A stretch of 64,000 bases of DNA. Origin: Escherichia coli (GTDB lineage: Bacteria > Pseudomonadota > Gammaproteobacteria > Enterobacterales > Enterobacteriaceae). The translations under genes were made by a program, and so were the position numbers. Under the pieces are notes generated by a model. It was not told the origin of the DNA. It did not search any database and saw only the letters and a program-made list of their open reading frames with translations. Below are positions 6,891 through 63,767 of the stretch, piece after piece; positions within the stretch are counted from its first letter, which is position 1, and each line of letters starts with the position of its first letter. The DNA is taken from the NCBI GenBank assembly GCA_009729775.1, contig GCA_009729775.1_4081.1; one strand, written 5' to 3'.

Positions 6891-8216
6891 TTAGCCAAGA
6901 GAGCGTGCTTTACGTACAAGTTCAGAGTACTTAGCGATGAAATCTTTAAACGCTGGTACATCTTTAATGGAAATCGCAACCTTATGAAGCGTGATGGTAC
7001 GAATTGCCAGTACTGCCAGTTCTGCTTGAGTTGCAGAGAAGTTATGGTCTAGGAAGGTGATGAAGTTGTTACACAGTTTACCCCATTCTTCCACTGGTAG
7101 ACGTTGTTCTTGCTTCTCATTGAACAGGTCGATAATTTTATAAACCAAGTTCAGAGTGATAAAGTAGTTCGCAGAAATATCCAGAGTTGCGTCGATTTCT
7201 TTGATTTCACCAGACAGAATAGACATAGTATCTGGTAGTTTAGCAACGTTCTCAACGTACTCAATGTATTCAGTTGCAACACCTTCACCAACACGACCAG
7301 CAATCATTGCACGGAACACTTCTTTATCAATTGTCTTAGTTTTCTTGAGATCTTCGTAGCGTGCTACTGCTTCCCATGAACGTGGAGAAGTACCACCGCT
7401 GTGAGAAGGATCTTGTGGACTAAGTGTGTTAAAGTACTTAGAACCAGTGTTGTTGATGAACGCAACAGTTGCTGGGTTCAAACGTTTTGCAATCGCATAA
7501 TCGTTAATCCAATCTTGATGGTAAGGAATCATCTCAATGTGAGTCATACGGTCACGCAGTGGTGTAGCAAGAGAGAAAGTTACACCGCCATCAGTTTCAC
7601 GGTTACCTGCTGCAAGAATCAGTGCAGTCTTAGGTAGCTTCATCTCACCAACACAACGGTCGAGGATTAGCTGATAAGACGCTGCCTGAACAATAGGCAT
7701 TGCAGAGTTAATTTCGTCAAACAGAATAACACCTTTCCAATCTTCGGACAATTTCAGAACTTTAGGTGCAGCCCATACTACCGCAGTTTCAGCTACATAA
7801 TCTTTTGCTTCGGCAAGCTCAGATTCTTTCAGAAGAGAACCGTCAGTTTTACGGAAAAGCTTCTCTGGTACTGGAATACCGCGAAGGTCACTTGGTTCGA
7901 TTTGAGACAAACGGAAATCGATAAAGTTAGTATCTTGGTCGATTAGTTTTGCTTCAAATGCAGCCAGTTCACGGCGTAGCTGATCAGCATTTTCAGGGTC
8001 AGCTTCGATTTGTTGTTTCATGAACTCGATTTTAGCTACGTTATCTTTACGCAGTGGGTAATTTTCATCAGCATATTGACGAGCGATAGCAGACTTACCG
8101 ATACCTGGGCTACCCCAAATCATCAGGCTATCTTGAATCATGTCAGCCAGTGCCATTGCTTCTTTAGCTTTCTTTGGAGTCAGTTTAACGTTCAGGATAT
8201 CGTTTTGAGTAGTCAT
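6891..8216 (-). CDS. AAA+ ATPase, MoxR/CobS-like
   Basis: 441 aa; Walker A GSPGIGKS, Walker B ILFDEIN; AAA+ sensor region; adjacent VWA partner. Confidence 0.8.
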   Translation of the reverse strand: MTTQNDILNVKLTPKKAKEAMALADMIQDSLMIWGSPGIGKSAIARQYADENYPLRKDNVAKIEFMKQQIEADPENADQLRRELAAFEAKLIDQDTNFIDFRLSQIEPSDLRGIPVPEKLFRKTDGSLLKESELAEAKDYVAETAVVWAAPKVLKLSEDWKGVILFDEINSAMPIVQAASYQLILDRCVGEMKLPKTALILAAGNRETDGGVTFSLATPLRDRMTHIEMIPYHQDWINDYAIAKRLNPATVAFINNTGSKYFNTLSPQDPSHSGGTSPRSWEAVARYEDLKKTKTIDKEVFRAMIAGRVGEGVATEYIEYVENVAKLPDTMSILSGEIKEIDATLDISANYFITLNLVYKIIDLFNEKQEQRLPVEEWGKLCNNFITFLDHNFSATQAELAVLAIRTITLHKVAISIKDVPAFKDFIAKYSELVRKARSLG

Positions 8217-8257
8217 GTATATATTTCCTTTTGTTGGATAAAATCGTTTAAGTTTCT

Positions 8258-8286
8258 ATTATAGCCAATCCGTGGGCAAAAGTAAA
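8258..8286 (-). promoter_or_regulatory. sigma70 / T4-early-like promoter
   Basis: Minus strand: -35 (C)TTTACT, 17-bp spacer, -10 TATAAT, about 40 nt upstream of AAA+ ATPase start 8216. Confidence 0.45.
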
Positions 8287-8324
8287 GGAACTGTGTTAAA
8301 ATAATTTAACTTATCAGTTCCTTT
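8284..8324 (-). repeat. perfect 10-bp inverted repeat (stem-loop) overlapping promoter -35
   Basis: AAAGGAACTG ... CAGTTCCTTT with 21-nt loop; no adjacent T-run. Confidence 0.5.
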
Positions 8325-8529
8325 GTTACTTCATGAATCATCCGTGTGTTTAAAAGGTAAATCTCTTTGCTGTCTTGATGTGAACATTATATCACATCGT
8401 TTCAACTTGTCAATCACTTTTTTTCTTTTTTTTCAAACTCACATCTTGTGTCGCTTGAAAACTTTATGTCTGATGCTTATTGTATCACATCATTCTATCT
8501 TGTCAACATTTATTTTTAATTCATTTTTC

Positions 8530-8910
8530 TTACATATGAATAGAAAATAACTGTTTAAAATCATCACAACACAATGTTAATTCAGTTATTATCATTGCAT
8601 CTGTCAGATATATGTACTGACCTTCAACATAATAAGGTGAAGTACATATTCTGTCAAGTGATGTAAACATTATAGAACTTTTAAATTCTCTTTGCAAGGG
8701 GATTTTTGTAAATTCATAAAGATTATTTTCTTTACAAATTCCATACCCAAACTTGCTAAGACGTAAACCACCGCCAGTTCTGAAATTTTCAAAAATTGAC
8801 ATCAGAAGCATACGGTCTGTTATTTCTGAATCTGATTCATGTACTTCCCTAACTTTGGAAAGTACATTATTTTGATATTCAGTACTGTTATGTGATGGTT
8901 CTGGAAACAT
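8530..8910 (-). CDS. hypothetical protein (126 aa)
   Basis: ORF in track, co-oriented, no motif recognised. Confidence 0.45.
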   Translation of the reverse strand: MFPEPSHNSTEYQNNVLSKVREVHESDSEITDRMLLMSIFENFRTGGGLRLSKFGYGICKENNLYEFTKIPLQREFKSSIMFTSLDRICTSPYYVEGQYIYLTDAMIITELTLCCDDFKQLFSIHM

Positions 8911-8913
8911 ATA

Positions 8914-9309
8914 TTAGTCTCCAACAAAACCTTGACGTGCAGCATAAGATGGTGCACCAGGTTCATTATAGTGTTGTACACCTTCTTTGTCAATTGTTGG
9001 TCCCATACCTTCAGTACCAAAACAACCTGCAATGGCTTCCAACACTTCGTCATCAGCAACTTCAGTACTTTCATCATTATATCGAATATCAGACAAAATG
9101 TCACAGGCTTTTTGTAGTTTATCTACAATTTCTTTTTGGTCTTCACCAGATTTAATCTTATCAACAATGTTAATAAGACATTTGGTAATATCCTTAAGAA
9201 CATCAACTGCTACAACATCGGATTCAACTTCAACTGAAAAACTTTCGTCTTCATCTCTTCCGGTAATTTCGTCTAACGCTTCAACTAGTTCACGATAATT
9301 ATATTGCAT
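8914..9309 (-). CDS. hypothetical acidic protein (131 aa)
   Basis: ORF in track; acidic composition; 3-nt spacing to neighbours. Confidence 0.5.
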   Translation of the reverse strand: MQYNYRELVEALDEITGRDEDESFSVEVESDVVAVDVLKDITKCLINIVDKIKSGEDQKEIVDKLQKACDILSDIRYNDESTEVADDEVLEAIAGCFGTEGMGPTIDKEGVQHYNEPGAPSYAARQGFVGD

Positions 9310-9310
9310 A

Positions 9311-10291
9311 TTATTTGTCTCCTAAAAATTTCTTGTATTTTTCTTGGAGACTTTCAAAAATATCTTCTACTTCTTCATCAGAATCATCTTCCAAGTCAAT
9401 GTTACCTTCAGGTGAATCATCTTCTTCACTTTCATTAACATTTAGTGGGTTATCTCCTAATGCAGTGCCTGGGAATTTTGGTTCAAATTTATGAACACGA
9501 TTTTCGTTCCCTTCATTATCATAATACTCAGGTTCTGGACGATTGTCAAGATCTTCATCTACAACACGTCTCCAATAAAACTGATTGCCTTTTGCAATTA
9601 CAACAAAATGGTCACCTTCAACACCATTAGTCTTTAGTTGACCATCACGAACTGCATCAGCTTCTGTTCCATATGGACCGTAATCAGTACTGTTAGATGG
9701 TTCTTCATCTTCAGAGATACTTAGATCTGGTAGAAATTGGGTATCTTTCATTTCTTTATCGGTGGCAGGATTACCCTCTACGGAAAAATCTTCGTCTTCT
9801 TCTTCGTTAATACCAGCAAGGGATAGCATACGACTAAAATCGAATTCTTCTTCAATAATTTCTTCTTCTTCCTCATCGTCTTCTTCAACTGATTCTAGTT
9901 GAGGTTGACCACTAAGGTCAAGAGAAAAATCTTCTTCACCTTCTACACCTGGTTCTGAAAATTCAGCATCCATACTAACTTCATCTGAGTCAGCACCAAA
10001 ATCACCAACATCAGCGGAAAGATCATCAACTGCCGCTGCTAGTGGGTCTTCAACTGAAGTTTCAATTCCACCAATTTCTTCTTCAGCACCAATAGAATCT
10101 AGATCTAGTGGAGCAATAGGTGGAAGAGATGGAGTCATAGACCCCATTGATGGTACTGGAGCAGCAACAACTGGGTCTTGACGTTCAGCTTGACCAGCAA
10201 GTGCTAACATACGTGATAGTGTTTCCAAATCATCAGATTCTAAACCTGCGATATCGATTTTAACTTGTGCTTCATTAATTTTTTTAGCCAT
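9311..10291 (-). CDS. highly acidic (D/E-rich) protein, scaffold-like composition
   Basis: 326 aa with long D/E-rich low-complexity tracts; function not assignable from sequence. Confidence 0.55.
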   Translation of the reverse strand: MAKKINEAQVKIDIAGLESDDLETLSRMLALAGQAERQDPVVAAPVPSMGSMTPSLPPIAPLDLDSIGAEEEIGGIETSVEDPLAAAVDDLSADVGDFGADSDEVSMDAEFSEPGVEGEEDFSLDLSGQPQLESVEEDDEEEEEIIEEEFDFSRMLSLAGINEEEDEDFSVEGNPATDKEMKDTQFLPDLSISEDEEPSNSTDYGPYGTEADAVRDGQLKTNGVEGDHFVVIAKGNQFYWRRVVDEDLDNRPEPEYYDNEGNENRVHKFEPKFPGTALGDNPLNVNESEEDDSPEGNIDLEDDSDEEVEDIFESLQEKYKKFLGDK

Positions 10292-22546: not shown

Positions 22547-23023
22547 TTATTTTAGAATGTATAAGTGTTTTTCTGCATTGACCAGACGGTGATCAATGAT
22601 TTCTTTGATAACGTTCCAGTTACCGCCGCCCAAATCGGCTCCAATTTTCGGGAAATGTACATGAACATCTCGATCAACTTTACAAAAATAATTTAGATGT
22701 TTGAACACATCGTCAATTGCATCATAACTGACATATTTAGCACCGTCATTACCGTACATTTTTTGGGTAATACAGTTTGCAATAATCAAATTATCGTTAA
22801 TTGCTGAATATGCAATTTGTCCAATTCTAAGAAATCCCATTTCCTTTTCATATGCTTTATAATCATCATATGCCATTGGATAACGATTTCTTAGTTCTTT
22901 TGCAAAACCTGAACCCATTTTACCCTGTGCGTTACAACCATGAGCAATTATATGTAATGCATTTTGATCATCGGTAACAGTACTGAACAATTCAAACAGA
23001 TTACCTCTGTGTTCATGTATCAT
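22547..23023 (-). CDS. macro-domain (ADP-ribose binding/processing) protein
   Basis: 158 aa; HGCNAQGKMGSGFAKEL and FPKIGADLGGGNW resemble macro-domain N-x-N-x-G-G-G and FP-x-I-G-x-G motifs. Confidence 0.6.
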   Translation of the reverse strand: MIHEHRGNLFELFSTVTDDQNALHIIAHGCNAQGKMGSGFAKELRNRYPMAYDDYKAYEKEMGFLRIGQIAYSAINDNLIIANCITQKMYGNDGAKYVSYDAIDDVFKHLNYFCKVDRDVHVHFPKIGADLGGGNWNVIKEIIDHRLVNAEKHLYILK

Positions 23024-23852: not shown

Positions 23853-24254
23853 TTATTTCCTTCTATTTCTTTGAAAAGCTTTAACAGCTTTAATAATACT
23901 GTTACACATTCGTTCAGTCAAATACTTTTGACATTCTCGTACATCAATGTACATGAACTTATCCAATTCTGGATGACTCTTACCATATCTATTAGTGTAA
24001 GTACTTTTACAAACTAATTCATCTGGTATTGGTTTGTCTTTGGCAGTATAAAAGAAAAGTACTAACCTTTTTCCCTTTCTATAGGATACATCACCAAGAA
24101 ACAGAAGATCATCTTCATCGATTTCGTATCCTGTCTCTTCGAAACATTCACGTACAGCAGCTTCTTTGAAAGTTTCATTACCCTCAGCTTTCCCTTTAGG
24201 TAAATCCCAATGATTCTGTCCGTGTTGTATGTCCGATAAGTATCTGACCATCAC
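23853..24254 (-). CDS. Nudix hydrolase
   Basis: 133 aa; canonical Nudix box GKAEGNETFKEAAVRECFEETGY. Confidence 0.85.
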   Translation of the reverse strand: MMVRYLSDIQHGQNHWDLPKGKAEGNETFKEAAVRECFEETGYEIDEDDLLFLGDVSYRKGKRLVLFFYTAKDKPIPDELVCKSTYTNRYGKSHPELDKFMYIDVRECQKYLTERMCNSIIKAVKAFQRNRRK

Positions 24255-54927: not shown

Positions 54928-55292
54928 GTGTGGATAATTTCCTTAACCCCGTATTCCATAATTGCTAATGTGCAAATTTCACATGGTTTAGCAGGTACAG
55001 GAATACCATCTTTACTTATCCGTGCAATCAGTAAAGTATGAACATCAGCACGTGCAGCTAATAAGCAAGAAATTTCAGCATGGAGAAATTCACCTTGTGG
55101 ACGTCCAGCACGAATTGCAAAACCTTTCTGTACTGGATGTGTCTGTGTATAAGAATTTGTGCGTGTTGCCAGTACTCGACCTTTTTTATCCAGTGCACGA
55201 GCAATCACACGATACCGCTTGTAGTTCCCTACTTGCTCAATAGGTGGCATCCGGCGTAATTCTTCAACAAGTTTCTCCAATTTACTATTCAT
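54924..55292 (-). CDS. compact CDA-fold zinc-dependent deaminase
   Basis: 122 aa; HAE and PCEIC zinc-binding motifs of cytidine/deoxycytidylate deaminase superfamily. Confidence 0.6.
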   Translation of the reverse strand: MNSKLEKLVEELRRMPPIEQVGNYKRYRVIARALDKKGRVLATRTNSYTQTHPVQKGFAIRAGRPQGEFLHAEISCLLAARADVHTLLIARISKDGIPVPAKPCEICTLAIMEYGVKEIIHT

Positions 55293-55915
55293 AAGTCTAA
55301 GTCTATACCCTTTTCAAGTGATTTTTCTAGAACCCAAAGTTTACATTCTTCACTCTCCAAATGTATCTTTGCCTCTTGCTGTTCTTCTATTGTACAAGAC
55401 TTTATGAATGCACGCAAGGCTTGGATTGTATTTTTTAAATTTTTTATGTCATCGATAATTTTTTCTTTGGTTTCTTCATCGATTACACATGAACTCCAAC
55501 TGTGTCGTTCCTCCCAAACTGTTTTAGTGGGATTATAAATTGATGATGTCGAAATAGCTACATGGATCTTATTAAATTCATCGTCCGCTTCTTGTTGGGT
55601 GTAATCACCATATGTTCTTAGCACATTTTTGTATAATTCATCAATGGCCTCTTCATACGTATCACCACCACAATCCAATTGATAATCATGTGCTTGTACC
55701 CATTCGTCGTCTTGCTCAATATACATTGGTGAAAGAAATTCTACCCAAAATTGAGTCTTTGTATTCAATGCTTTGAAATCTTCAATTCGATTTGTCATTG
55801 GACACACATCATGAGGTTCTATATCAATCCTAGCTGGAACCATATCTTTGTTTATGAATTTAGGATGACCCAAAATCCACCAGTACTTTTCCGATGTAGT
55901 CATAGTAATCTCCAA
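55289..55915 (-). CDS. hypothetical protein (208 aa)
   Basis: ORF in track. Confidence 0.5.
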   Translation of the reverse strand: MEITMTTSEKYWWILGHPKFINKDMVPARIDIEPHDVCPMTNRIEDFKALNTKTQFWVEFLSPMYIEQDDEWVQAHDYQLDCGGDTYEEAIDELYKNVLRTYGDYTQQEADDEFNKIHVAISTSSIYNPTKTVWEERHSWSSCVIDEETKEKIIDDIKNLKNTIQALRAFIKSCTIEEQQEAKIHLESEECKLWVLEKSLEKGIDLDL

Positions 55916-55949
55916 TTAAAAAGTACTGCACACGATGGCAGTACTGATG

Positions 55950-56309
55950 TTAAACGTAACGTTTCTTTTTATAATCATACCCTACTGCTTTGTAAAAGTC
56001 AAACAAAGAAGCATGTTCAAATGTAGGTAATAGATCATATGGGTGCTGATAGTTCGCAATACCAACAATAGCCATCATTGATTCAGCAGTTCTTACGTTC
56101 TCACTATCCCATTCATCTAAACGCCAAAGTGAGCAAAGTACCTCTCGTTCATGTTGCTTACCCAGAAAGAATCCAGCTTCACGGTCACGAAATGCACCTA
56201 CACTGACAGTACTTTTGTACCAGTCTTTTTCACCATATAATGGCATACGGATAATATGTTTTTCTTTAGCTTCTCCAAAGCGATGAAGAAATGCTACATA
56301 ATCACTCAT
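55950..56309 (-). CDS. hypothetical protein (119 aa)
   Basis: ORF in track. Confidence 0.5.
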   Translation of the reverse strand: MSDYVAFLHRFGEAKEKHIIRMPLYGEKDWYKSTVSVGAFRDREAGFFLGKQHEREVLCSLWRLDEWDSENVRTAESMMAIVGIANYQHPYDLLPTFEHASLFDFYKAVGYDYKKKRYV

Positions 56310-56476
56310 AATTTATAACCCATTACAGGTTTGGTATGATCCGGTTCGTAAGACTTTTCAGTACTGAACCCTCTGAAATTACCACGACCTGGATTCGGGC
56401 AAGCCATTCCTTGTACTGAATGCTTACCCTTATCTTTGCCACAATTTTTACATTTGTAGTCAATTACTTCTTTCAT
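56306..56476 (-). CDS. small zinc-ribbon-like ORF (56 aa), translationally coupled on both sides
   Basis: CKNC...C...C pattern; AAGGA SD; ATGA overlaps with both flanking genes; below track cut-off. Confidence 0.45.
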   Translation of the reverse strand: MKEVIDYKCKNCGKDKGKHSVQGMACPNPGRGNFRGFSTEKSYEPDHTKPVMGYKL

Positions 56477-56721
56477 TGTGCATCCTTCGGAACAGTATTA
56501 AGACGTTTGCGATTCACAATCTTCCTGCACATGAGGTTAAGATCTTGCCCATGACGCATAGTATGACATGCGTATAGTGTTCCTTGATGATTTAGTTTTG
56601 TTAAACCTTGACGGATGATTTCAGCATCCATCTCATCAACTTTAGGAGCACAACCACAGAGAATAATGGATACAAATATTGTTAATGTAATGAATATATT
56701 TTTCATGATATTTTTTCTCAT
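56473..56721 (-). CDS. lipoprotein-like small secreted protein (82 aa)
   Basis: Signal peptide with lipobox-like ILCGC. Confidence 0.45.
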   Translation of the reverse strand: MRKNIMKNIFITLTIFVSIILCGCAPKVDEMDAEIIRQGLTKLNHQGTLYACHTMRHGQDLNLMCRKIVNRKRLNTVPKDAQ

Positions 56722-57098
56722 TTAGTAAAACACGAATTATTACTGATAAGTTCATCAAGTACGTTTTGTACTTCGATAGAATTAATATCAACTTTGTAAT
56801 AATTATAGTTTTTAACTCTAAAATGTTCTTTTGATATATCAACTTTAAATTCAATAATATCAAGATTACCAATAAAATCAGACTTATCAGTTCTTAAATC
56901 CAAAATACCTAATTCCGGTTTTTGTGGTTTACATAAAATCAAACCAAATTTATTTTCTTCAAATGCCTGATTAAACATATCATAATAATCACTAATAACA
57001 AATCTAATATTATCAGTGCTTAACTTTCCTGATTTTCCTTTTTTATAAACAGAAACAATGTTTAGTTCAAAGGTTTTACCAAAGCGTGTGATTTTCAT
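56718..57098 (-). CDS. hypothetical protein (126 aa)
   Basis: ORF in track. Confidence 0.45.
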   Translation of the reverse strand: MKITRFGKTFELNIVSVYKKGKSGKLSTDNIRFVISDYYDMFNQAFEENKFGLILCKPQKPELGILDLRTDKSDFIGNLDIIEFKVDISKEHFRVKNYNYYKVDINSIEVQNVLDELISNNSCFTK

Positions 57099-58066
57099 TT
57101 TGGGCTATAACCACTTTTAATTTTAGAAATTACTTTCTTCTCGAAGAACTTACGTGCTTCTTCAATAGTTTCGAATTCTTCACCATCTGTAGTACTAGTT
57201 TTACCAATAGAACCGTACTCAATAATTACTTCACACACTGGAGCATTCAATTCAATATTATAGAATTTGTTTGAAGAATCGTGAACATATTCCAAATGTA
57301 CATTATCAGGAATGTTCTGTACATAATCATAGTTCTTGAAGATAATATCAATCATATTTTCTTCGCCGCGATCAGGAAATATTTCAGTATTATTGAGTAC
57401 TAAACGCTGTGCAGCACGGAACATATCAAAATATTGTTCGCCTTTTTTCAGTTCTTTTGTATCAGAACAGAAATGACCATAATATTCTACATAATCATTC
57501 CAAGGATAAATTCCTTCATCAGCAGTTTCAGACACGTAAGTTTCATCTTGTGGAACTTTAAAACCACGAGTTTTTGGATGAGAAATTAAGCACAGTGAAA
57601 TATTATGACCGATATCTGAATCATCAGTAATACTACCACCAACCATATGAACAACATTTTTAATACTTTCAAAATCTACATCTTCAATTTCATGATACAT
57701 TAAATGTTCTTCAATATTACTTACTAGTAATGAATTACCATTTCCGGCATCGAATTCAAAAATGAAAAGTTCTACACAATCTTCTTCTTTCATTTCAATA
57801 GTATCACTGAGTTTAATATACTCATTTTTTAATTGTTCAATATTTTCATGAGAACCAAAACTATAACGTGAACTGATATAACTACTACCGTCCAACCATC
57901 CCATATCCCAAGGTTCTTCTGACATGTATTCTGAGCTATAGAAATCAGTCAAATCATCTCTCTGAGTACAAACCGTAAGAGAACGAACATTACTAAGACC
58001 TTGAACTTCAAGATTCAGCACTGTAGTATTGCCAATTTTTTGTTCAGAAATAATTTTAGTTTTCAT
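57095..58066 (-). CDS. protein with C-terminal WGR-like domain (323 aa)
   Basis: C-terminal KFYNIEL...EYGSIGKTSTTDGEEFETIEEARKFFEKKVISKIKSGY fits WGR-domain consensus as recalled. Confidence 0.55.
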   Translation of the reverse strand: MKTKIISEQKIGNTTVLNLEVQGLSNVRSLTVCTQRDDLTDFYSSEYMSEEPWDMGWLDGSSYISSRYSFGSHENIEQLKNEYIKLSDTIEMKEEDCVELFIFEFDAGNGNSLLVSNIEEHLMYHEIEDVDFESIKNVVHMVGGSITDDSDIGHNISLCLISHPKTRGFKVPQDETYVSETADEGIYPWNDYVEYYGHFCSDTKELKKGEQYFDMFRAAQRLVLNNTEIFPDRGEENMIDIIFKNYDYVQNIPDNVHLEYVHDSSNKFYNIELNAPVCEVIIEYGSIGKTSTTDGEEFETIEEARKFFEKKVISKIKSGYSPK

Positions 58067-58283
58067 TTAAAATACCTATTGAATTGATTTACGCCATTTG
58101 GCTAGTTTAACATTCATGTAAGTAAGGAACTCACGTTCCATCTCTTCTGAACTCATATTATCGCATTACAAAGCGAACATGTCAAGTGCACAAATGCAAA
58201 GATCTACAGCTTCACCTTTGACACCATCTTTACCTGCTTCTTTATATGATAACCCATCACGGATGTTCATATTTCATATCATC

Positions 58284-58934
58284 CTACTTTTTCGATTGGA
58301 ACAATGCAATCTGTACGCGTGTGATGAACTCACGCTCTACTTCTTCAGCACTGTGTCCTTCATATTGTGTCTTGAAAAGTTCCATTGCTTTTAGGGCCAT
58401 CTGTACAGAAATGTCTGTAATACTTTCAGTACTGGTGCTTTCAAATACGTTTTTGATGGTTAGTTCACCATCACAAACATCATCAACTACAACTGGGGTA
58501 TTGTTTTGTTCATCAATGTAACGTAAAGCTTTGTACTCTGCTTTTGTTAGATTTTCATACCAACGTGGGTGGTGGAACAAATCATGCATTGTAACTTTTG
58601 CTGCTTCCATGAGAAGTAATAGCTCTTCATTTCTGCGAATATGTTTTTCTTCACCTTTATGATTTTTGTAAGTATATGCACAACGCATAATGGCTAATCG
58701 AACTTCACCTGCTTTGGTGATAGTGTATGAATGTATTGCATTATCATAATCACTTTCCCATTTCTGACCAGCATATTCGTACCAAAGTTCATTAGTTTCC
58801 CATTTAATGAAATCAAATTCTAACAAACTGTCAATCAACTTAGCCAAATTACCACTGTACTCACGGCTAATGATATTGAAACCACCATTGTACTTTGCAA
58901 GGTACAGAATCTTTTCTTGAGTTACATTTTTCAT
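58284..58934 (-). CDS. hypothetical protein (216 aa)
   Basis: ORF in track. Confidence 0.5.
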   Translation of the reverse strand: MKNVTQEKILYLAKYNGGFNIISREYSGNLAKLIDSLLEFDFIKWETNELWYEYAGQKWESDYDNAIHSYTITKAGEVRLAIMRCAYTYKNHKGEEKHIRRNEELLLLMEAAKVTMHDLFHHPRWYENLTKAEYKALRYIDEQNNTPVVVDDVCDGELTIKNVFESTSTESITDISVQMALKAMELFKTQYEGHSAEEVEREFITRVQIALFQSKK

Positions 58935-59272
58935 TACATGTAATCCTTGATGTATTTTAGCAGTTTAGATTTCTCTTCGGTACTTAATGATTTCTTGTTC
59001 ATTAAGTGTTTCATTTCTTGACGTTCAATTTCTTCACATCTTTTAGATTCAGCTTCAATTCGTGTATTATATTCTTCGTCAGTTTCTTCTCTGGTCCAAA
59101 TTACATTGTATCCATGAAAACCGCCGTAACCACTGTCTGGTGAAAGACTAATGTGACCGTTATATTCAGCACGATACTTATTAAGAGTGTCAATAAAGGT
59201 ATCAATGCCACACGGTTCAATTTCAATATAACCAATCACTACAGTAACGTCAATTTTGTTCATAAAGTTCAC
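58934..59272 (-). CDS. hypothetical protein (112 aa)
   Basis: ORF in track. Confidence 0.45.
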   Translation of the reverse strand: MNFMNKIDVTVVIGYIEIEPCGIDTFIDTLNKYRAEYNGHISLSPDSGYGGFHGYNVIWTREETDEEYNTRIEAESKRCEEIERQEMKHLMNKKSLSTEEKSKLLKYIKDYM

Positions 59273-59290
59273 CTATAAAATTAGGGAGCA

Positions 59291-59848
59291 TTAGCTCCCT
59301 TTGTATTGATGTTTATGTTTTGTACTGTATTTCCAGCCAGTACTATGTCTTGTTCTGATATCGTCCCAATACGATGGTAATGAACGCATCTTACGTCTTC
59401 CACGTATATCAGGTTCCCCCTCATCCTTCAGTACTGCACAAGCCATACGACGCTCTTGTTGAGTCTTAGGACGCTTGTATCGGGAGTGGTTATGTTTGTA
59501 CATATACGAACGCTTATGACGCCATTCCGTATCACGAGCTTTACGTTTATGTTCCCAGTACTCATTATAGAGTATCATGTATTCACCCATAAGTAAATCA
59601 GGAGATACAAGTAATCCTTTTTCAGTACAAAGATAATAACCCACAAACTTTTCTGGAAACATTTCGTAATAGAAACGGTTCTTCCAAAATGTTTCACGAT
59701 TCTTTTTGTTGAATTCTGCTAAATCAAATTTCATCTTACTGTGGAAACGATCTATCCCTTGATGGTCAGCAATGTATTGAAGTAGATCGTCTACAATCTC
59801 AACTTTACCAGAATCGTGATACAACGTAAATGTTTGGTCAAAAAACAT
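59291..59848 (-). CDS. hypothetical protein with strongly basic C-terminal tail (185 aa)
   Basis: AAGGAG SD 8 nt upstream; K/R/H/Y-rich C-terminus. Confidence 0.45.
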   Translation of the reverse strand: MFFDQTFTLYHDSGKVEIVDDLLQYIADHQGIDRFHSKMKFDLAEFNKKNRETFWKNRFYYEMFPEKFVGYYLCTEKGLLVSPDLLMGEYMILYNEYWEHKRKARDTEWRHKRSYMYKHNHSRYKRPKTQQERRMACAVLKDEGEPDIRGRRKMRSLPSYWDDIRTRHSTGWKYSTKHKHQYKGS

Positions 59849-59950
59849 ATGAAATCTCCTTTAAGTTAAAATAACCTAATGGAAAGTCATTCTTCCTTTA
59901 ATACATGTTCTCATGATTTGTTCCTTTTGTCAAGATATAGATATAAAAAA

Positions 59951-59970
59951 TCCCTGCCAAAAGACAGGGA
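59951..59970 (-). terminator. rho-independent terminator
   Basis: 6-bp stem TCCCTG/CAGGGA, 8-nt loop, followed on minus strand by TTTTTT. Confidence 0.6.
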
Positions 59971-60074
59971 CGAAAAACTGAAATAACACATGGAGTTCTT
60001 TTTAATTTAATAAAAAGTATTATTATTCTTATAAAAGTATTTATTAAGAACTCCACAATATTGCTTCAAATGAA

Positions 60075-60331: not shown

Positions 60332-61771
60332 TTACATATTTTCTTCAGCAAATTCAGCCAGTGGTGAACGAACAACACCTTCTAGTTCGATGACACGACA
60401 ACCTGCCCAGTCTTTAAACTTCTCAGTTACATATGTCAAACCACTGTTAACAGGACTAATAAACTTACTGTCAATCTGACTCAAGTTACCCATAATTACT
60501 ACTTTACAGTTTAACCCTGCTCGTGTCAAGATGGTTTTTGCTTGTGCAGGTGTAATGTTTTGGAATTCATCAACTACTAGAATAGTGTTGGTGAATGAAC
60601 GTCCACGTACAAAGTTTAGTGCTTTAAATTGAATAACATTACGTTTCATAATCTCTTCAATACTACCTTGTGGATTGGCATCATCTTTATGAAGAAACTC
60701 TAACGCATCAATCGCGGCTCCACAGAATGGAATCACTTTTTCTGCTTCTGAACCTGGCAAGAAACCAATATCTTCAAACTGTGAGTCTTGAGTTTTAGAG
60801 AAGATGATTCGGTCGTATTTACGTTTTTCCAGTACTAATTCTAATGCAGTAGCAATTGTAATTAGTGTTTTACCAGTACCAGCAGAACCTAGCAGTACTG
60901 TTAGATGTACATCAGGATCGAGAATACTGTTGATGGCGAGTGCTTGTTGGATATTCTTTGCTTTAATATCCCATACTTTAGCACGTAAAGCCACTGATTG
61001 TCCAATGTCTTGGAATACCAAAATATCTTCTGGTGTTAGTGTTCCATCATCTTCCTCAATTGCTGATTGTCCTTCGTACACAAATAATACGTCAGCATCA
61101 TCATATAGATAATCACCGATGCATAGATTTTGTGGAAGCAGATGTTCAATCAAGCTTTTAGAAATGTAATGATACAAACGACGACCAACTTGTTCGGATT
61201 GAATATTAGTATTGGTTAAGTTGCTGTATACTTCCCAAAAATTGATTTCCAGATGGTGTTGACCAATGTGAATCAAATCACTATCACCAATAACAATATC
61301 ATGGCGATAATCTTGTACCTCGACACCATAACTTAGTGCTTTGATACGCATGTTGATATCACGAGTTACCAGTACTGATTCTGTTGCTAAAGCTACCAGA
61401 ATGATTTTATCATCAGGTACAGTACTTTTGAGAAGGGTTTGAACTTTCTCTTCTGTACCTTTAGTACGAATTAGTGCCTCAGCTTCTTCGTTTGTAATAA
61501 CAAACAATTTGCTATCAGGATTCATATTGGTATGAACATCAGCAATATTAACACCAGTACTACTAATCTCGTCATGTGATGCATCTGCAATAATTGCTTC
61601 AATGTTACGAATAGCAACACGAGCATCGCGTGAAACATCTACATTACGACTCTTAATCGAATCTAATTCTTCCAGTACTGTAAATGGTAGAATGATTGCA
61701 GCACCATCAAAAGCAATAGATGCATTAGGGTCAGATAGTAGTACGTTTGTGTCAATTGTATATTTTTTCAT
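60332..61771 (-). CDS. phoH: PhoH-like ATPase with N-terminal PIN domain
   Basis: 479 aa; PIN-like N-terminus (YTIDTNVLL); Walker A LLGSAGTGKTL; Walker B VVDEFQN. Confidence 0.85.
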   Translation of the reverse strand: MKKYTIDTNVLLSDPNASIAFDGAAIILPFTVLEELDSIKSRNVDVSRDARVAIRNIEAIIADASHDEISSTGVNIADVHTNMNPDSKLFVITNEEAEALIRTKGTEEKVQTLLKSTVPDDKIILVALATESVLVTRDINMRIKALSYGVEVQDYRHDIVIGDSDLIHIGQHHLEINFWEVYSNLTNTNIQSEQVGRRLYHYISKSLIEHLLPQNLCIGDYLYDDADVLFVYEGQSAIEEDDGTLTPEDILVFQDIGQSVALRAKVWDIKAKNIQQALAINSILDPDVHLTVLLGSAGTGKTLITIATALELVLEKRKYDRIIFSKTQDSQFEDIGFLPGSEAEKVIPFCGAAIDALEFLHKDDANPQGSIEEIMKRNVIQFKALNFVRGRSFTNTILVVDEFQNITPAQAKTILTRAGLNCKVVIMGNLSQIDSKFISPVNSGLTYVTEKFKDWAGCRVIELEGVVRSPLAEFAEENM

Positions 61772-61831
61772 AAAACATCCTTGAGTTATGAGTACATCCT
61801 TGTACTCGACTAATGTTATTGACTCGGATTA

Positions 61832-62134
61832 TTACATATTTGGTTCGTATTCAACATAGCAACGTGAACCTCGAACCTTTTCTTCCCAGCACTCCTGGTA
61901 AACAAGTTGACCAATTGAAACTGGTTCTCTTGATAGTCCATTACGTACTTCACCACTTTGGGTTTTATACATGAATGAACATTTGGACTCGCTACATTGT
62001 CCTAAACTAACAACTTCTGCGGTATTGTAGTGAATGTTGGTACGCTTAGTGTTCTCGTGATACTGTCCGAACCAAAGAACTCCTGCACCTAACAGAACAG
62101 TACAAATAAGACTTTTGATGTGTGTTTGAATCAT
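61832..62134 (-). CDS. secreted/membrane Cys-containing protein (100 aa)
   Basis: N-terminal hydrophobic segment; six Cys. Confidence 0.45.
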   Translation of the reverse strand: MIQTHIKSLICTVLLGAGVLWFGQYHENTKRTNIHYNTAEVVSLGQCSESKCSFMYKTQSGEVRNGLSREPVSIGQLVYQECWEEKVRGSRCYVEYEPNM

Positions 62135-62451
62135 AATGCGTTAAATCCATTGTTTAAGTATGTTTCAATATTAATTTTACCAACAGGATTACTACTGTGA
62201 ACAAAGTACTCAAACGGTTCTTTAATATTATTATCAAACATATAATCAATAAGAAACTTAGCAAAAGAATATCCAGTCTTTTCGTCTTCGCTCACATCAC
62301 CCAAGTCATGGTCGAATGATACAAATGCTGGAATTCCATTTTCAATAACATATTCACATGCACTTTTAAAGTCACGACATACCACCATATCTTGGTTTGG
62401 ATAATATAGATTTGCATCACGAATATCATCCAAAAACATTGCGTAAGACAT
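62131..62451 (-). CDS. hypothetical protein (106 aa)
   Basis: ORF in track; 4-nt overlap with neighbour. Confidence 0.45.
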   Translation of the reverse strand: MSYAMFLDDIRDANLYYPNQDMVVCRDFKSACEYVIENGIPAFVSFDHDLGDVSEDEKTGYSFAKFLIDYMFDNNIKEPFEYFVHSSNPVGKINIETYLNNGFNAL

Positions 62452-62460
62452 GTTAAACTC

Positions 62461-63012
62461 CTATAGATAACTAATTAGTAAGTTTTCTTTTTGAATCAGA
62501 TACTCCAATTCTTGTTTTGCTGTACCGATGAAGTTCTGTGTCATAAGATTATTATATCCCGCTTCTCGATTTTGTCCCTTAGAATAACGAGAAATATGAC
62601 ATAAATTTACACCAGCAACTTCAGCACTCGCATGTTTAGCATTAGTGTATCCATCTCTAATGTGTTTCAACTCGTCATAGCTTACTTCATAGCTAAAACT
62701 ATGACTGTTTGCACCTGGGTAAATTTCAAAAGTTTTGAGTGGTCGAAGATGGGAAACAAAAATATTGTAATCCATTTCTTCTTGAACTTCACGACGCAAC
62801 GCATCTTCTAGTGAGATATCAGTACTTTCAACTGTTCCACCACATCCTCCTAGAAGTCCATCCCAACGTAATTGTAGTAATACCAGATTTACTTCTGGTA
62901 TATCATTTAACTCATAGTTTTTGTAAGGGTTGCATTTTCTTGCAAAGAAATAGCAAAATACAAAATTTGCACGTGAGCCATATTCACCAAAGGGAACTTC
63001 TTTAACACTCAT
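62461..63012 (-). CDS. Nudix-like hydrolase (divergent Nudix box)
   Basis: 183 aa; GGCGGTVE...RREVQEEMD approximates the Nudix box with a 3-residue insertion. Confidence 0.5.
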   Translation of the reverse strand: MSVKEVPFGEYGSRANFVFCYFFARKCNPYKNYELNDIPEVNLVLLQLRWDGLLGGCGGTVESTDISLEDALRREVQEEMDYNIFVSHLRPLKTFEIYPGANSHSFSYEVSYDELKHIRDGYTNAKHASAEVAGVNLCHISRYSKGQNREAGYNNLMTQNFIGTAKQELEYLIQKENLLISYL

Positions 63013-63767
63013 TTCATACGTTCCTTAATTATAGTCTCTAGATGTGGTATTGCTTTGGTTGCTGGCTTGATAACTTTTTCATTAAACAAAAAATCATTAT
63101 CATTTTTACGAATGTTAACATTAACACTATAACATGGTAATGCTGCTGCTAATCTCGACCATACCAGTACTGTATCGCTACTACCAATTACAATAACTGT
63201 ATCATTTTCATTAAGAGATTTCAACACATTATTTCGTTCTTCGTAAATTGGTAAGCGTATACCATCAACATAACGATGATATTCTCCAATCATTACTACA
63301 TTTGGTTTAGCAAAAACATCATGTTTTGGTATGTATGGTTCGTATCCGCAGTTAATAACATTATAATCATCAGAATTGATACTATAATTTTCAATAACTT
63401 CACACAAGTTTCCATGAAGTTTAAGCTCATGACCACCAATACGAGTATAAAGATCGTCCATGTTAGAAGTCATATGAAGGAAGCAATCACCATATTGATC
63501 TTCTAACGATTTTATAAAATAATGCATTGCATTTGGTTCGCATTGTCCCAATTTTACACGTAATGTATTATAGAAAGAATGAACAACATGATATTTTGTA
63601 GTTAAACTAGCAATGTTACATACATCATTAATTTTAAATGTATCCCACAAACCATCATCAAATCGAAAAGGTTCCATCCCACTTTCAACGGAAAGTCCTG
63701 CACCTGATATAATCAGTAATCGTTTTTTACCTTCATTGCTTATAAATTTTTCTGATATCATATTCAA
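63009..63767 (-). CDS. short Sir2-like (sirtuin-family) protein
   Basis: 252 aa; GAGLSVESGMEPFR, LHGN, VVMIGE and VIGSS blocks in sirtuin order; zinc-ribbon Cys pairs not evident. Confidence 0.6.
   Translation of the reverse strand: MNMISEKFISNEGKKRLLIISGAGLSVESGMEPFRFDDGLWDTFKINDVCNIASLTTKYHVVHSFYNTLRVKLGQCEPNAMHYFIKSLEDQYGDCFLHMTSNMDDLYTRIGGHELKLHGNLCEVIENYSINSDDYNVINCGYEPYIPKHDVFAKPNVVMIGEYHRYVDGIRLPIYEERNNVLKSLNENDTVIVIGSSDTVLVWSRLAAALPCYSVNVNIRKNDNDFLFNEKVIKPATKAIPHLETIIKERMK

Follow-up and report, generated by a model that had tools for sequence, protein, structure and literature searches.

WGR domains are, to our knowledge, well understood only within the eukaryotic poly(ADP-ribose) polymerases (PARPs), and we know of no experimentally defined role for the thousands of WGR proteins encoded by bacteria and phages. 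Among the closest described systems are WGR-ligase fusion proteins (PMC7470946) and the jumbo-phage WGR proteins that Iyer et al. (2021) placed with the MolR/YehI-like predicted transcription factors (PMC7824862). The gene described here encodes a 323-amino-acid (323-aa) WGR protein and lies in a 64,000-nucleotide stretch deposited as Escherichia coli (contig GCA_009729775.1_4081.1), which is referred to as the window. The gene is genuine, belongs to a giant phage of E. coli and is optional; its product is a WGR-domain protein with a new architecture, in which the nucleic-acid-binding WGR module is combined with a 250-residue acidic orphan domain.

Around the gene (window positions 55000-60000), identity is 98.0% with Escherichia phages vB_EcoM_G17 and Sharanji and 97% with PBECO4 and phAPEC6; these four are Asteriusvirus jumbo myoviruses with genomes of ~350 kb. 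The open reading frame (ORF) sits within a long run of co-directional minus-strand genes (88 of the 95 window ORFs, called greedily, are on this strand). Orthologs are present in PBECO4, in Sharanji (gp474) and in phAPEC6 (gp336c, 'WGR domain-containing protein'), and a 97-99% identical protein is found in 17 Escherichia Asteriusvirus records. The label 'WGR domain(-containing) protein' is already public for PBECO4, slurp01, UB, BF17, phAPEC6, Sharanji and others, and the G17 record carries a COG3831 WGR note for its ortholog; the WGR call is prior public knowledge and not new. What is added to the public annotation is the orphan N-terminal domain fused to the WGR domain, a WGR subtype that lacks a basic residue, and the presence/absence cassette in which the gene is carried.

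The identity of the C-terminal WGR domain is confirmed by profile and by fold, well beyond chance. The PF05406 profile matches residues 256-322 (E=1.2e-10, 41.8 bits; gathering score 22), and the C-terminal module of a full-length AlphaFold2 model built on 27 homologs (predicted local distance difference test, pLDDT, 90.1; predicted template modelling score, pTM, 0.89) superposes on solved WGR domains. An earlier note on this DNA had read a WGR-like C terminus and had set the PF05406 search beforehand as the refuting test; a match was found and the observation stands. It had also left the N-terminal region without assignment, and this agrees with the databases: NCBIfam and PADLOC are silent on that domain, and no PHROGs family matches the 323-aa protein.

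For comparison with other WGR domains, a hidden Markov model was built from the WGR columns of the family, and 34 family members were set against 271 aligned WGR domains of the nearest non-family proteins. The general WGR signature is retained in the family (K267, Y269, Y284, G285, A304, K310, K315, K317, G319 and Y320). The W-G-R triad, which is not strictly needed for Pfam WGR membership, is not matched and reads Y284-G285-S286 here. Its glycine is invariant and its aromatic position is Y in 33 of 34 members, Y being also the commonest residue in other bacterial WGR domains. The third position is G, A, S or P in 33/34 family members, in contrast to K or R in 239/271 of the nearest other WGR domains; this loss of a basic residue is a trait of the family alone. 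Lysines 289 and 311 are particular to the family, and the net charge of the domain is ~0 (family median +0.5) as against a median of +2 in other WGR domains. In a HMMER alignment to the PARP3 WGR domain, read together with the PARP2 structural paper, PARP2 residues K130, Y132, W151, K179 and K183, which touch the DNA backbone and the 5'-terminal ribose (PMC6294510), correspond to K267, Y269, Y284, K311 and K315, each of them kept in at least 30 of the 34 members; PARP2 R153 aligns with S286. The domain thus retains most of a predicted nucleic-acid-contact surface but forms a distinct subtype.

A survey of partner domains covered the 113 nearest WGR proteins and 25 of their 27 partner families. 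In most of these proteins nothing is seen besides WGR repeats and unannotated sequence; partners that can be recognised are ATP-dependent DNA ligase (5), SUKH/SMI1-KNR4 (5), DUF4132 (3) and ankyrin repeats (2), with zf-PARP, BRCT, RNA ligase and a capping-enzyme domain seen once each, and tetratricopeptide repeats (TPR) also occur among the protein-binding partners. None of the 25 families covered is a PARP catalytic domain. SUKH (SMI1/KNR4) domains are immunity-type modules. These partnerships in the nearest relatives indicate that WGR is an accessory module, attached either to enzymes whose substrates are nucleic-acid ends or to modules of the protein-binding and immunity types.

The N-terminal domain is joined to the WGR domain by a linker of only ~4 residues and, modelled alone, is predicted with a pLDDT of 89.8 and a pTM of 0.90. 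In the model it starts with three strands (residues 2-11, 14-22 and 27-34) and two short helices, continues with a beta-alpha-beta-beta-alpha-beta unit (66-72, 73-87, 100-108, 111-116, 118-124 and 139-144), and ends with five helices (152-249). A profile search against the PDB gave one borderline match (residues 86-171 to 4qo6/4qq0, E=0.0017), without structural confirmation, and fold and profile comparisons gave no similarity to any known hydrolase or transferase. The earlier idea that the N terminus might adopt the catalytic fold of ADP-ribosyltransferases (ART/PARP) finds no support, as these comparisons revealed neither an ART/PARP fold or profile nor a PARP helical regulatory domain; the 323-aa protein is not an ADP-ribosyltransferase.

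Five positions of the N-terminal domain are invariant in the extended family (G60, G71, G144, D148 and D149), and G144, D148 and D149 are unchanged in 20 of 20 aligned sequences, including five relatives with only 15-21% identity. At least 90% of members also keep D54, Y63, G110, N117, P164 and K170, while D107 and D151 vary in distant members. In the model these residues are placed where strands end and in the loops that follow, an arrangement that would fit a ligand or active-site pocket. The domain is strongly acidic throughout: net charge ranges from −24 to −34 (isoelectric point, pI, ~4.2) among 27 close members and from −20 to −30 among the five distant relatives; proteins of the window have a median net charge of −2.3 per 100 residues. 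The most acidic window protein of at least 120 aa is another one, the product of a minus-strand ORF at 9311..10291 (326 aa, ~−23 per 100 residues, pI 4.05).

A search of 5.8 billion proteins returned 27 full-length homologs of 314-331 aa with 37-99% identity, none of them truncated and all 27 with a precomputed PF05406 match. Exhaustive HMMER searching of 1.84 billion cluster representatives added five more divergent full-length relatives of 342-364 aa (P0031, P0032, P0035, P0058 and P0116), the source of the 15-21% identities in the N-terminal region. The remaining ~1100 HMMER matches (E <= 0.001) appear to cover the WGR part only, as do all non-family matches among the best 150 listed. Every match to a profile of the N-terminal domain (250 residues, alignment A2) in the 5.8 billion proteins also bears PF05406, so that an N-terminal domain without WGR or with other partners was rejected. 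There is no paralog in the window or in any fetched locus, and no relative was confirmed by pattern-based scanning of IMG/VR or of the genomes of 185,579 bacterial and archaeal species representatives (GTDB), with the limit that divergent relatives could escape such scans. The N-terminal domain is thus an orphan, seen only in fusion with WGR and only in giant-phage-like contigs.

Cultured phages with the family comprise the 17 Escherichia Asteriusvirus records, Erwinia phage Hallingskeid (39.6% identity) and Xanthomonas phage XaC1; counted by phage record the gene occurs in 18, none of them from 121Q, RaK2 or GAP32. Homologs with 37-43% identity share the same Rak2-like phage synteny (PIN-PhoH ... 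GroES ... lipoprotein - WGR ... dCMP deaminase), which suggests that the gene is old in the Rak2-like lineage. The most divergent full-length members, with ~25% identity, are encoded at 8001-9029 of each of two metagenome contigs, L005 and L006; they adjoin an adenylosuccinate synthase gene and have otherwise unrelated neighbours, and almost no gene on these contigs has a Pfam family. The two contigs presumably represent other giant phages with a different gene order.

The gene is carried in a 1.6-kb cassette that is present or absent among closely related phages. Phage 121Q has 222 bp in its place, encoding a 59-aa second lipoprotein (gene 485), between flanks that are 96-98% identical, and ~15 other Asteriusvirus records show the same pattern of partial coverage with flanks of up to ~97% identity. 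Because it is absent from 121Q and the partial-coverage pattern recurs in these records, the gene is dispensable and polymorphic, and its cassette is accessory ('moron-like'); that the cassette has its own promoter rests on a consensus match. The product is not found in the virion: the published phAPEC6 virion proteome, determined by electrospray ionization tandem mass spectrometry, contains 62 proteins, and gp336c is not among them, the table passing from gp323c directly to gp341c (PMC7247149).

We favour, at a probability of roughly 40%, the reading that this is an optional intracellular accessory protein of the Rak2/Asterius-like jumbo phages, in which the WGR domain docks on nucleic acid and the N-terminal domain acts. 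The two modules, always together and rigidly joined, would divide the work as follows. The WGR domain would most likely anchor the protein to nucleic acid, be it the DNA backbone, nicks or ends, through the predicted contacts K267, Y269, Y284, K311 and K315; several of the nearest WGR relatives are fused to ligase, zf-PARP or BRCT domains, which are nucleic-acid-end contexts. The acidic N-terminal domain of ~250 residues would be the working part and probably serves to bind or sense a protein or a small ligand, with the conserved polar residues D54, Y63, N117, D148, D149 and K170 at strand ends and in the next loops of the model. Expression is probably early in infection and may be driven by a host-type promoter within the cassette itself; the role of the protein would be in host interference or regulation and not in core replication.

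Several observations weigh against this interpretation. The basic third residue of the W-G-R triad has been lost in the family, and the PARP2 R153A variant, altered at the position of S286, is essentially inactive (PMC6294510). The protein also stops short of the position of PARP2 Y201, the reader of the 5'-phosphate. Its charge, too, is not what is usually seen in a DNA binder: the WGR domain is close to neutral (−4), and the protein as a whole is strongly acidic. The putative promoter, situated ~90 nt upstream of the start codon and inside the cassette, where it overlaps the end of a 34-aa ORF, is a consensus match in an AT-rich region in which the total of such sites is no higher than in shuffled sequence, and more distant homologs lack an intergenic gap upstream. 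Finally, a catalytic or metal site would be an equally good reading of the invariant D148 and D149 together with N117 at strand ends, and to call the N-terminal domain non-catalytic is a guess.

The alternative that fares best, although we regard it as unlikely, is that the protein is an immunity-like or anti-defence inhibitor, whose acidic N-terminal domain blocks a basic host effector that targets DNA (a nuclease, restriction enzyme or toxin), possibly as a DNA mimic, with the WGR domain localising it to lesions or helping in protein binding. Its strong acidity is conserved family-wide, and counter-defence genes typically show presence or absence in a variable slot, as seen here between flanks of up to ~97% identity. 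Five SUKH fusions are found among the nearest WGR proteins, along with others that have ankyrin or TPR partners, and a non-virion protein with a putative early promoter would suit such a role. A ligand-responsive phage transcription factor is also an unlikely explanation: here WGR would bind DNA, as proposed for MolR-like proteins, and the ACT-like ferredoxin module would sense a small molecule. The placement of jumbo-phage WGR proteins by Iyer et al. (2021) is in keeping with it. No operator-like repeats were found near the promoter-like site.

It is rather improbable that the N-terminal domain is a new enzyme acting on nucleic-acid termini (e.g. phosphoesterase or nucleotidyl-processing), with D148/D149, together with D54 and N117, forming a metal site and the WGR domain targeting it to breaks. 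In alpha/beta enzymes active sites usually lie at the C-terminal ends of strands and in the loops that follow, and it is there that the conserved Asp-Asp, Asn, Lys, Tyr and three Gly are placed. WGR relatives fused to DNA and RNA ligases and to a capping-enzyme domain argue for an enzyme by analogy with the WGR-ligase fusions. However, there is no likeness in fold or profile to a known hydrolase or transferase, and neither D107 nor D151 is invariant in distant members. A bolder proposal, of comparably low probability, is that the N-terminal domain represents a new giant-phage fold brought to DNA lesions by WGR, acting either as a counter-defence inhibitor of a host immune effector that targets DNA or as a new enzyme that repairs or unmasks modified or broken ends of phage DNA (e.g. 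by reversing DarT-type DNA ADP-ribosylation); loss of the WGR arginine and gain of K289 and K311 would then reflect retargeting to a new ligand.

The window also encodes proteins related to NAD (nicotinamide adenine dinucleotide) and ADP-ribose. The macro, two Nudix and Sir2 genes to which the earlier note pointed are all borne out by profile matches (for the macro domain ORF, Pfam Macro at E=0.009 is below threshold, and phrog_335 'phosphatase' matches at E=1e-45, in addition to the matches in Table 1). The PIN-PhoH, small membrane protein, cREC, Nudt16-like Nudix and Sir2 genes form a contiguous block (60332-63767) located 2-6 kb upstream of the WGR gene, which covers two of the genes cited in that note's 'toolkit' and matches the sirtuin/Nudix/cREC/PIN neighbourhood of jumbo phages, predicted by Iyer et al. 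(2022) to act as an NAD-dependent RNA-repair system; WGR is never mentioned in their survey of viral NAD/ADP-ribose systems (PMC9503650). A Sir2 gene occurs in 658 phage records, among them those of 121Q, RaK2 and GAP32, three phages without the WGR gene. The NAD/ADP-ribose genes are 4-35 kb from the WGR gene and outside its cassette, and the WGR gene shows neither neighbourhood linkage nor co-inheritance with them. A Pfam census of 79 window ORFs further recorded DUF4326, proposed to process ADP-ribose-linked phosphates (PMC9503650), RlaP (an RNA-repair pol-beta family) and a CCA/PolyA_pol enzyme, as well as a TnsA-like endonuclease N-terminal domain, a DUF2201 metallopeptidase/VWA protein and a ribosome hibernation factor (S30AE).

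The earlier note had counted the WGR protein as one component of a dispersed ADP-ribose/NAD toolkit, either through a divergent ART/PARP-like N-terminal domain or through a WGR domain that reads poly(ADP-ribose) or ADP-ribosylated targets alongside the macro, Nudix and Sir2 proteins. WGR is best known from PARP1-3, a preprint reports the PARP1 WGR domain as a reader of poly(ADP-ribose) (10.1101/2021.12.21.473685), and macro, Nudix, Sir2, cREC and DUF4326 proteins are indeed encoded in the window. Membership is nonetheless very improbable, since the N-terminal domain has no ART/PARP fold or profile, no catalytic partner of this kind is among the families listed for the 113 nearest WGR proteins, the Sir2, Nudix, cREC and PIN genes belong to a separate predicted neighbourhood, three phages keep Sir2 without the WGR gene, and the genes do not lie in one cassette.

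Table 1. Features of the WGR protein, its cassette and the NAD/ADP-ribose-related genes of the window.
Feature	Coordinates	Strand	Basis
Complete coding sequence, 323-aa two-domain protein	57095..58066	−	ORF listing, ATG start
Orphan acidic alpha/beta N-terminal domain (residues 1-250; net charge −28, pI 4.4)	57317..58066	−	
Central beta-alpha-beta-beta-alpha-beta module (ferredoxin/ACT/ring-building-motif-like) and next helix (residues 66-162)	57581..57871	−	
Family signature G144-x3-D148-D149-x-D151, at C-terminal end of strand 139-144	57614..57637	−	Alignment
WGR domain (residues 256-322), Y-G-[G/A/S] type without the Arg of the W-G-R triad	57101..57301	−	
Presence/absence cassette (1.6 kb) relative to phage 121Q: promoter-like site, WGR gene, 126-aa ORF, 5' end of lipoprotein gene	56658..58270	.	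BLASTN of 55000-60000
Sigma-70-like promoter match: TTGACA, 17-nt spacer, TG-GATAAT (extended -10), 11/12	58157..58185	−	Consensus scan
126-aa orphan ORF, start overlapping the WGR stop by 4 nt	56718..57098	−	No Pfam or PHROG family
Macro domain ORF	22547..23023	−	PDB macrodomain 5e3b, E=1.6e-11; Appr-1''-phosphatase 6lfu, E=2.7e-6
Nudix gene	23853-24254		
PIN-PhoH	60332-61771	−	
Small membrane protein, phrog_14661	61832-62134	−	
cREC_REC	62131-62451	−	
Nudix, Nudt16-like	62461-63012	−	
Sir2	63009-63767	−	

The immediate neighbours of the WGR gene have no assignable function, save for a dCMP deaminase gene 1.8 kb downstream. The 126-aa ORF was considered as a conserved operon partner and rejected, as its distribution is independent (12 phage records vs 18 for WGR; WPEC5 has the ORF without WGR, and six phages have WGR without the ORF) and the genes next to the distant homologs are different, with no homolog of this ORF beside distant WGR-family genes. 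Two tiny minus-strand ORFs, 58076..58156 (26 aa) and 58166..58270 (34 aa), occupy the 218-nt gap that precedes the WGR gene, the latter being annotated as a coding sequence in G17 and Sharanji; their interpretation as a frameshifted MazG-like remnant was dropped for want of a Pfam match. A 65-aa ORF upstream of the distant homologs is not a gene that is missing or frameshifted here; it is the lipoprotein gene, which in the window is situated downstream. One breakpoint of the cassette falls inside the signal peptide of this lipoprotein, so that the two phage types differ in the signal sequence of an otherwise identical lipoprotein.

The family offers a workable entry point to WGR function, being compact, confined to giant phages and composed of one WGR domain and a single partner whose fold is predicted with confidence. 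Phages that naturally carry or lack the gene and share flanks of up to ~97% identity are well suited to tests of non-PARP WGR binding and of partner function. For annotation, a WGR match in a phage protein should not be taken as evidence of ADP-ribosylation, and the nearby Sir2, Nudix and cREC genes form a neighbourhood of their own that has been described before.

Outside the family, the most similar WGR sequences (E 1e-41 to 1e-19) are those of WGR-ATP-dependent DNA ligase and multi-WGR proteins from bacteria and metagenomes. As in the WGR-ligase proteins (PMC7470946), WGR is here appended to an unrelated working domain; however, those proteins have 2-5 WGR copies and recognisable ligase domains, whereas the 323-aa protein has one WGR and an unassignable partner. 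The Bacteroides fragilis protein Q64V53 (PDB 2ra8) has the opposite order, with an N-terminal WGR followed by a different domain, in contrast to the C-terminal WGR after an acidic orphan domain, and it carries a basic K at the triad 'R' position where this family has none. PARP1, PARP2 and PARP3 are DNA-break sensors with helical regulatory and ART catalytic domains, neither of which is present here; the phage domain has lost the Arg of the triad (PARP2 R153), stops before the equivalent of Tyr201, which binds the 5'-phosphate, and is near neutral, not part of a basic DNA-binding assembly. MolR-type WGR proteins contain a DUF4132/MolR region, for which the 323-aa protein has no Pfam match (DUF4132), and the transcription-factor role of MolR/YehI-like WGR proteins is itself a prediction (PMC7824862). 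Conservation of the sirtuin-Nudix-cREC-PIN neighbourhood extends across the whole clade, whereas the WGR gene lies outside this neighbourhood, occurs sporadically and shows no co-inheritance with it.
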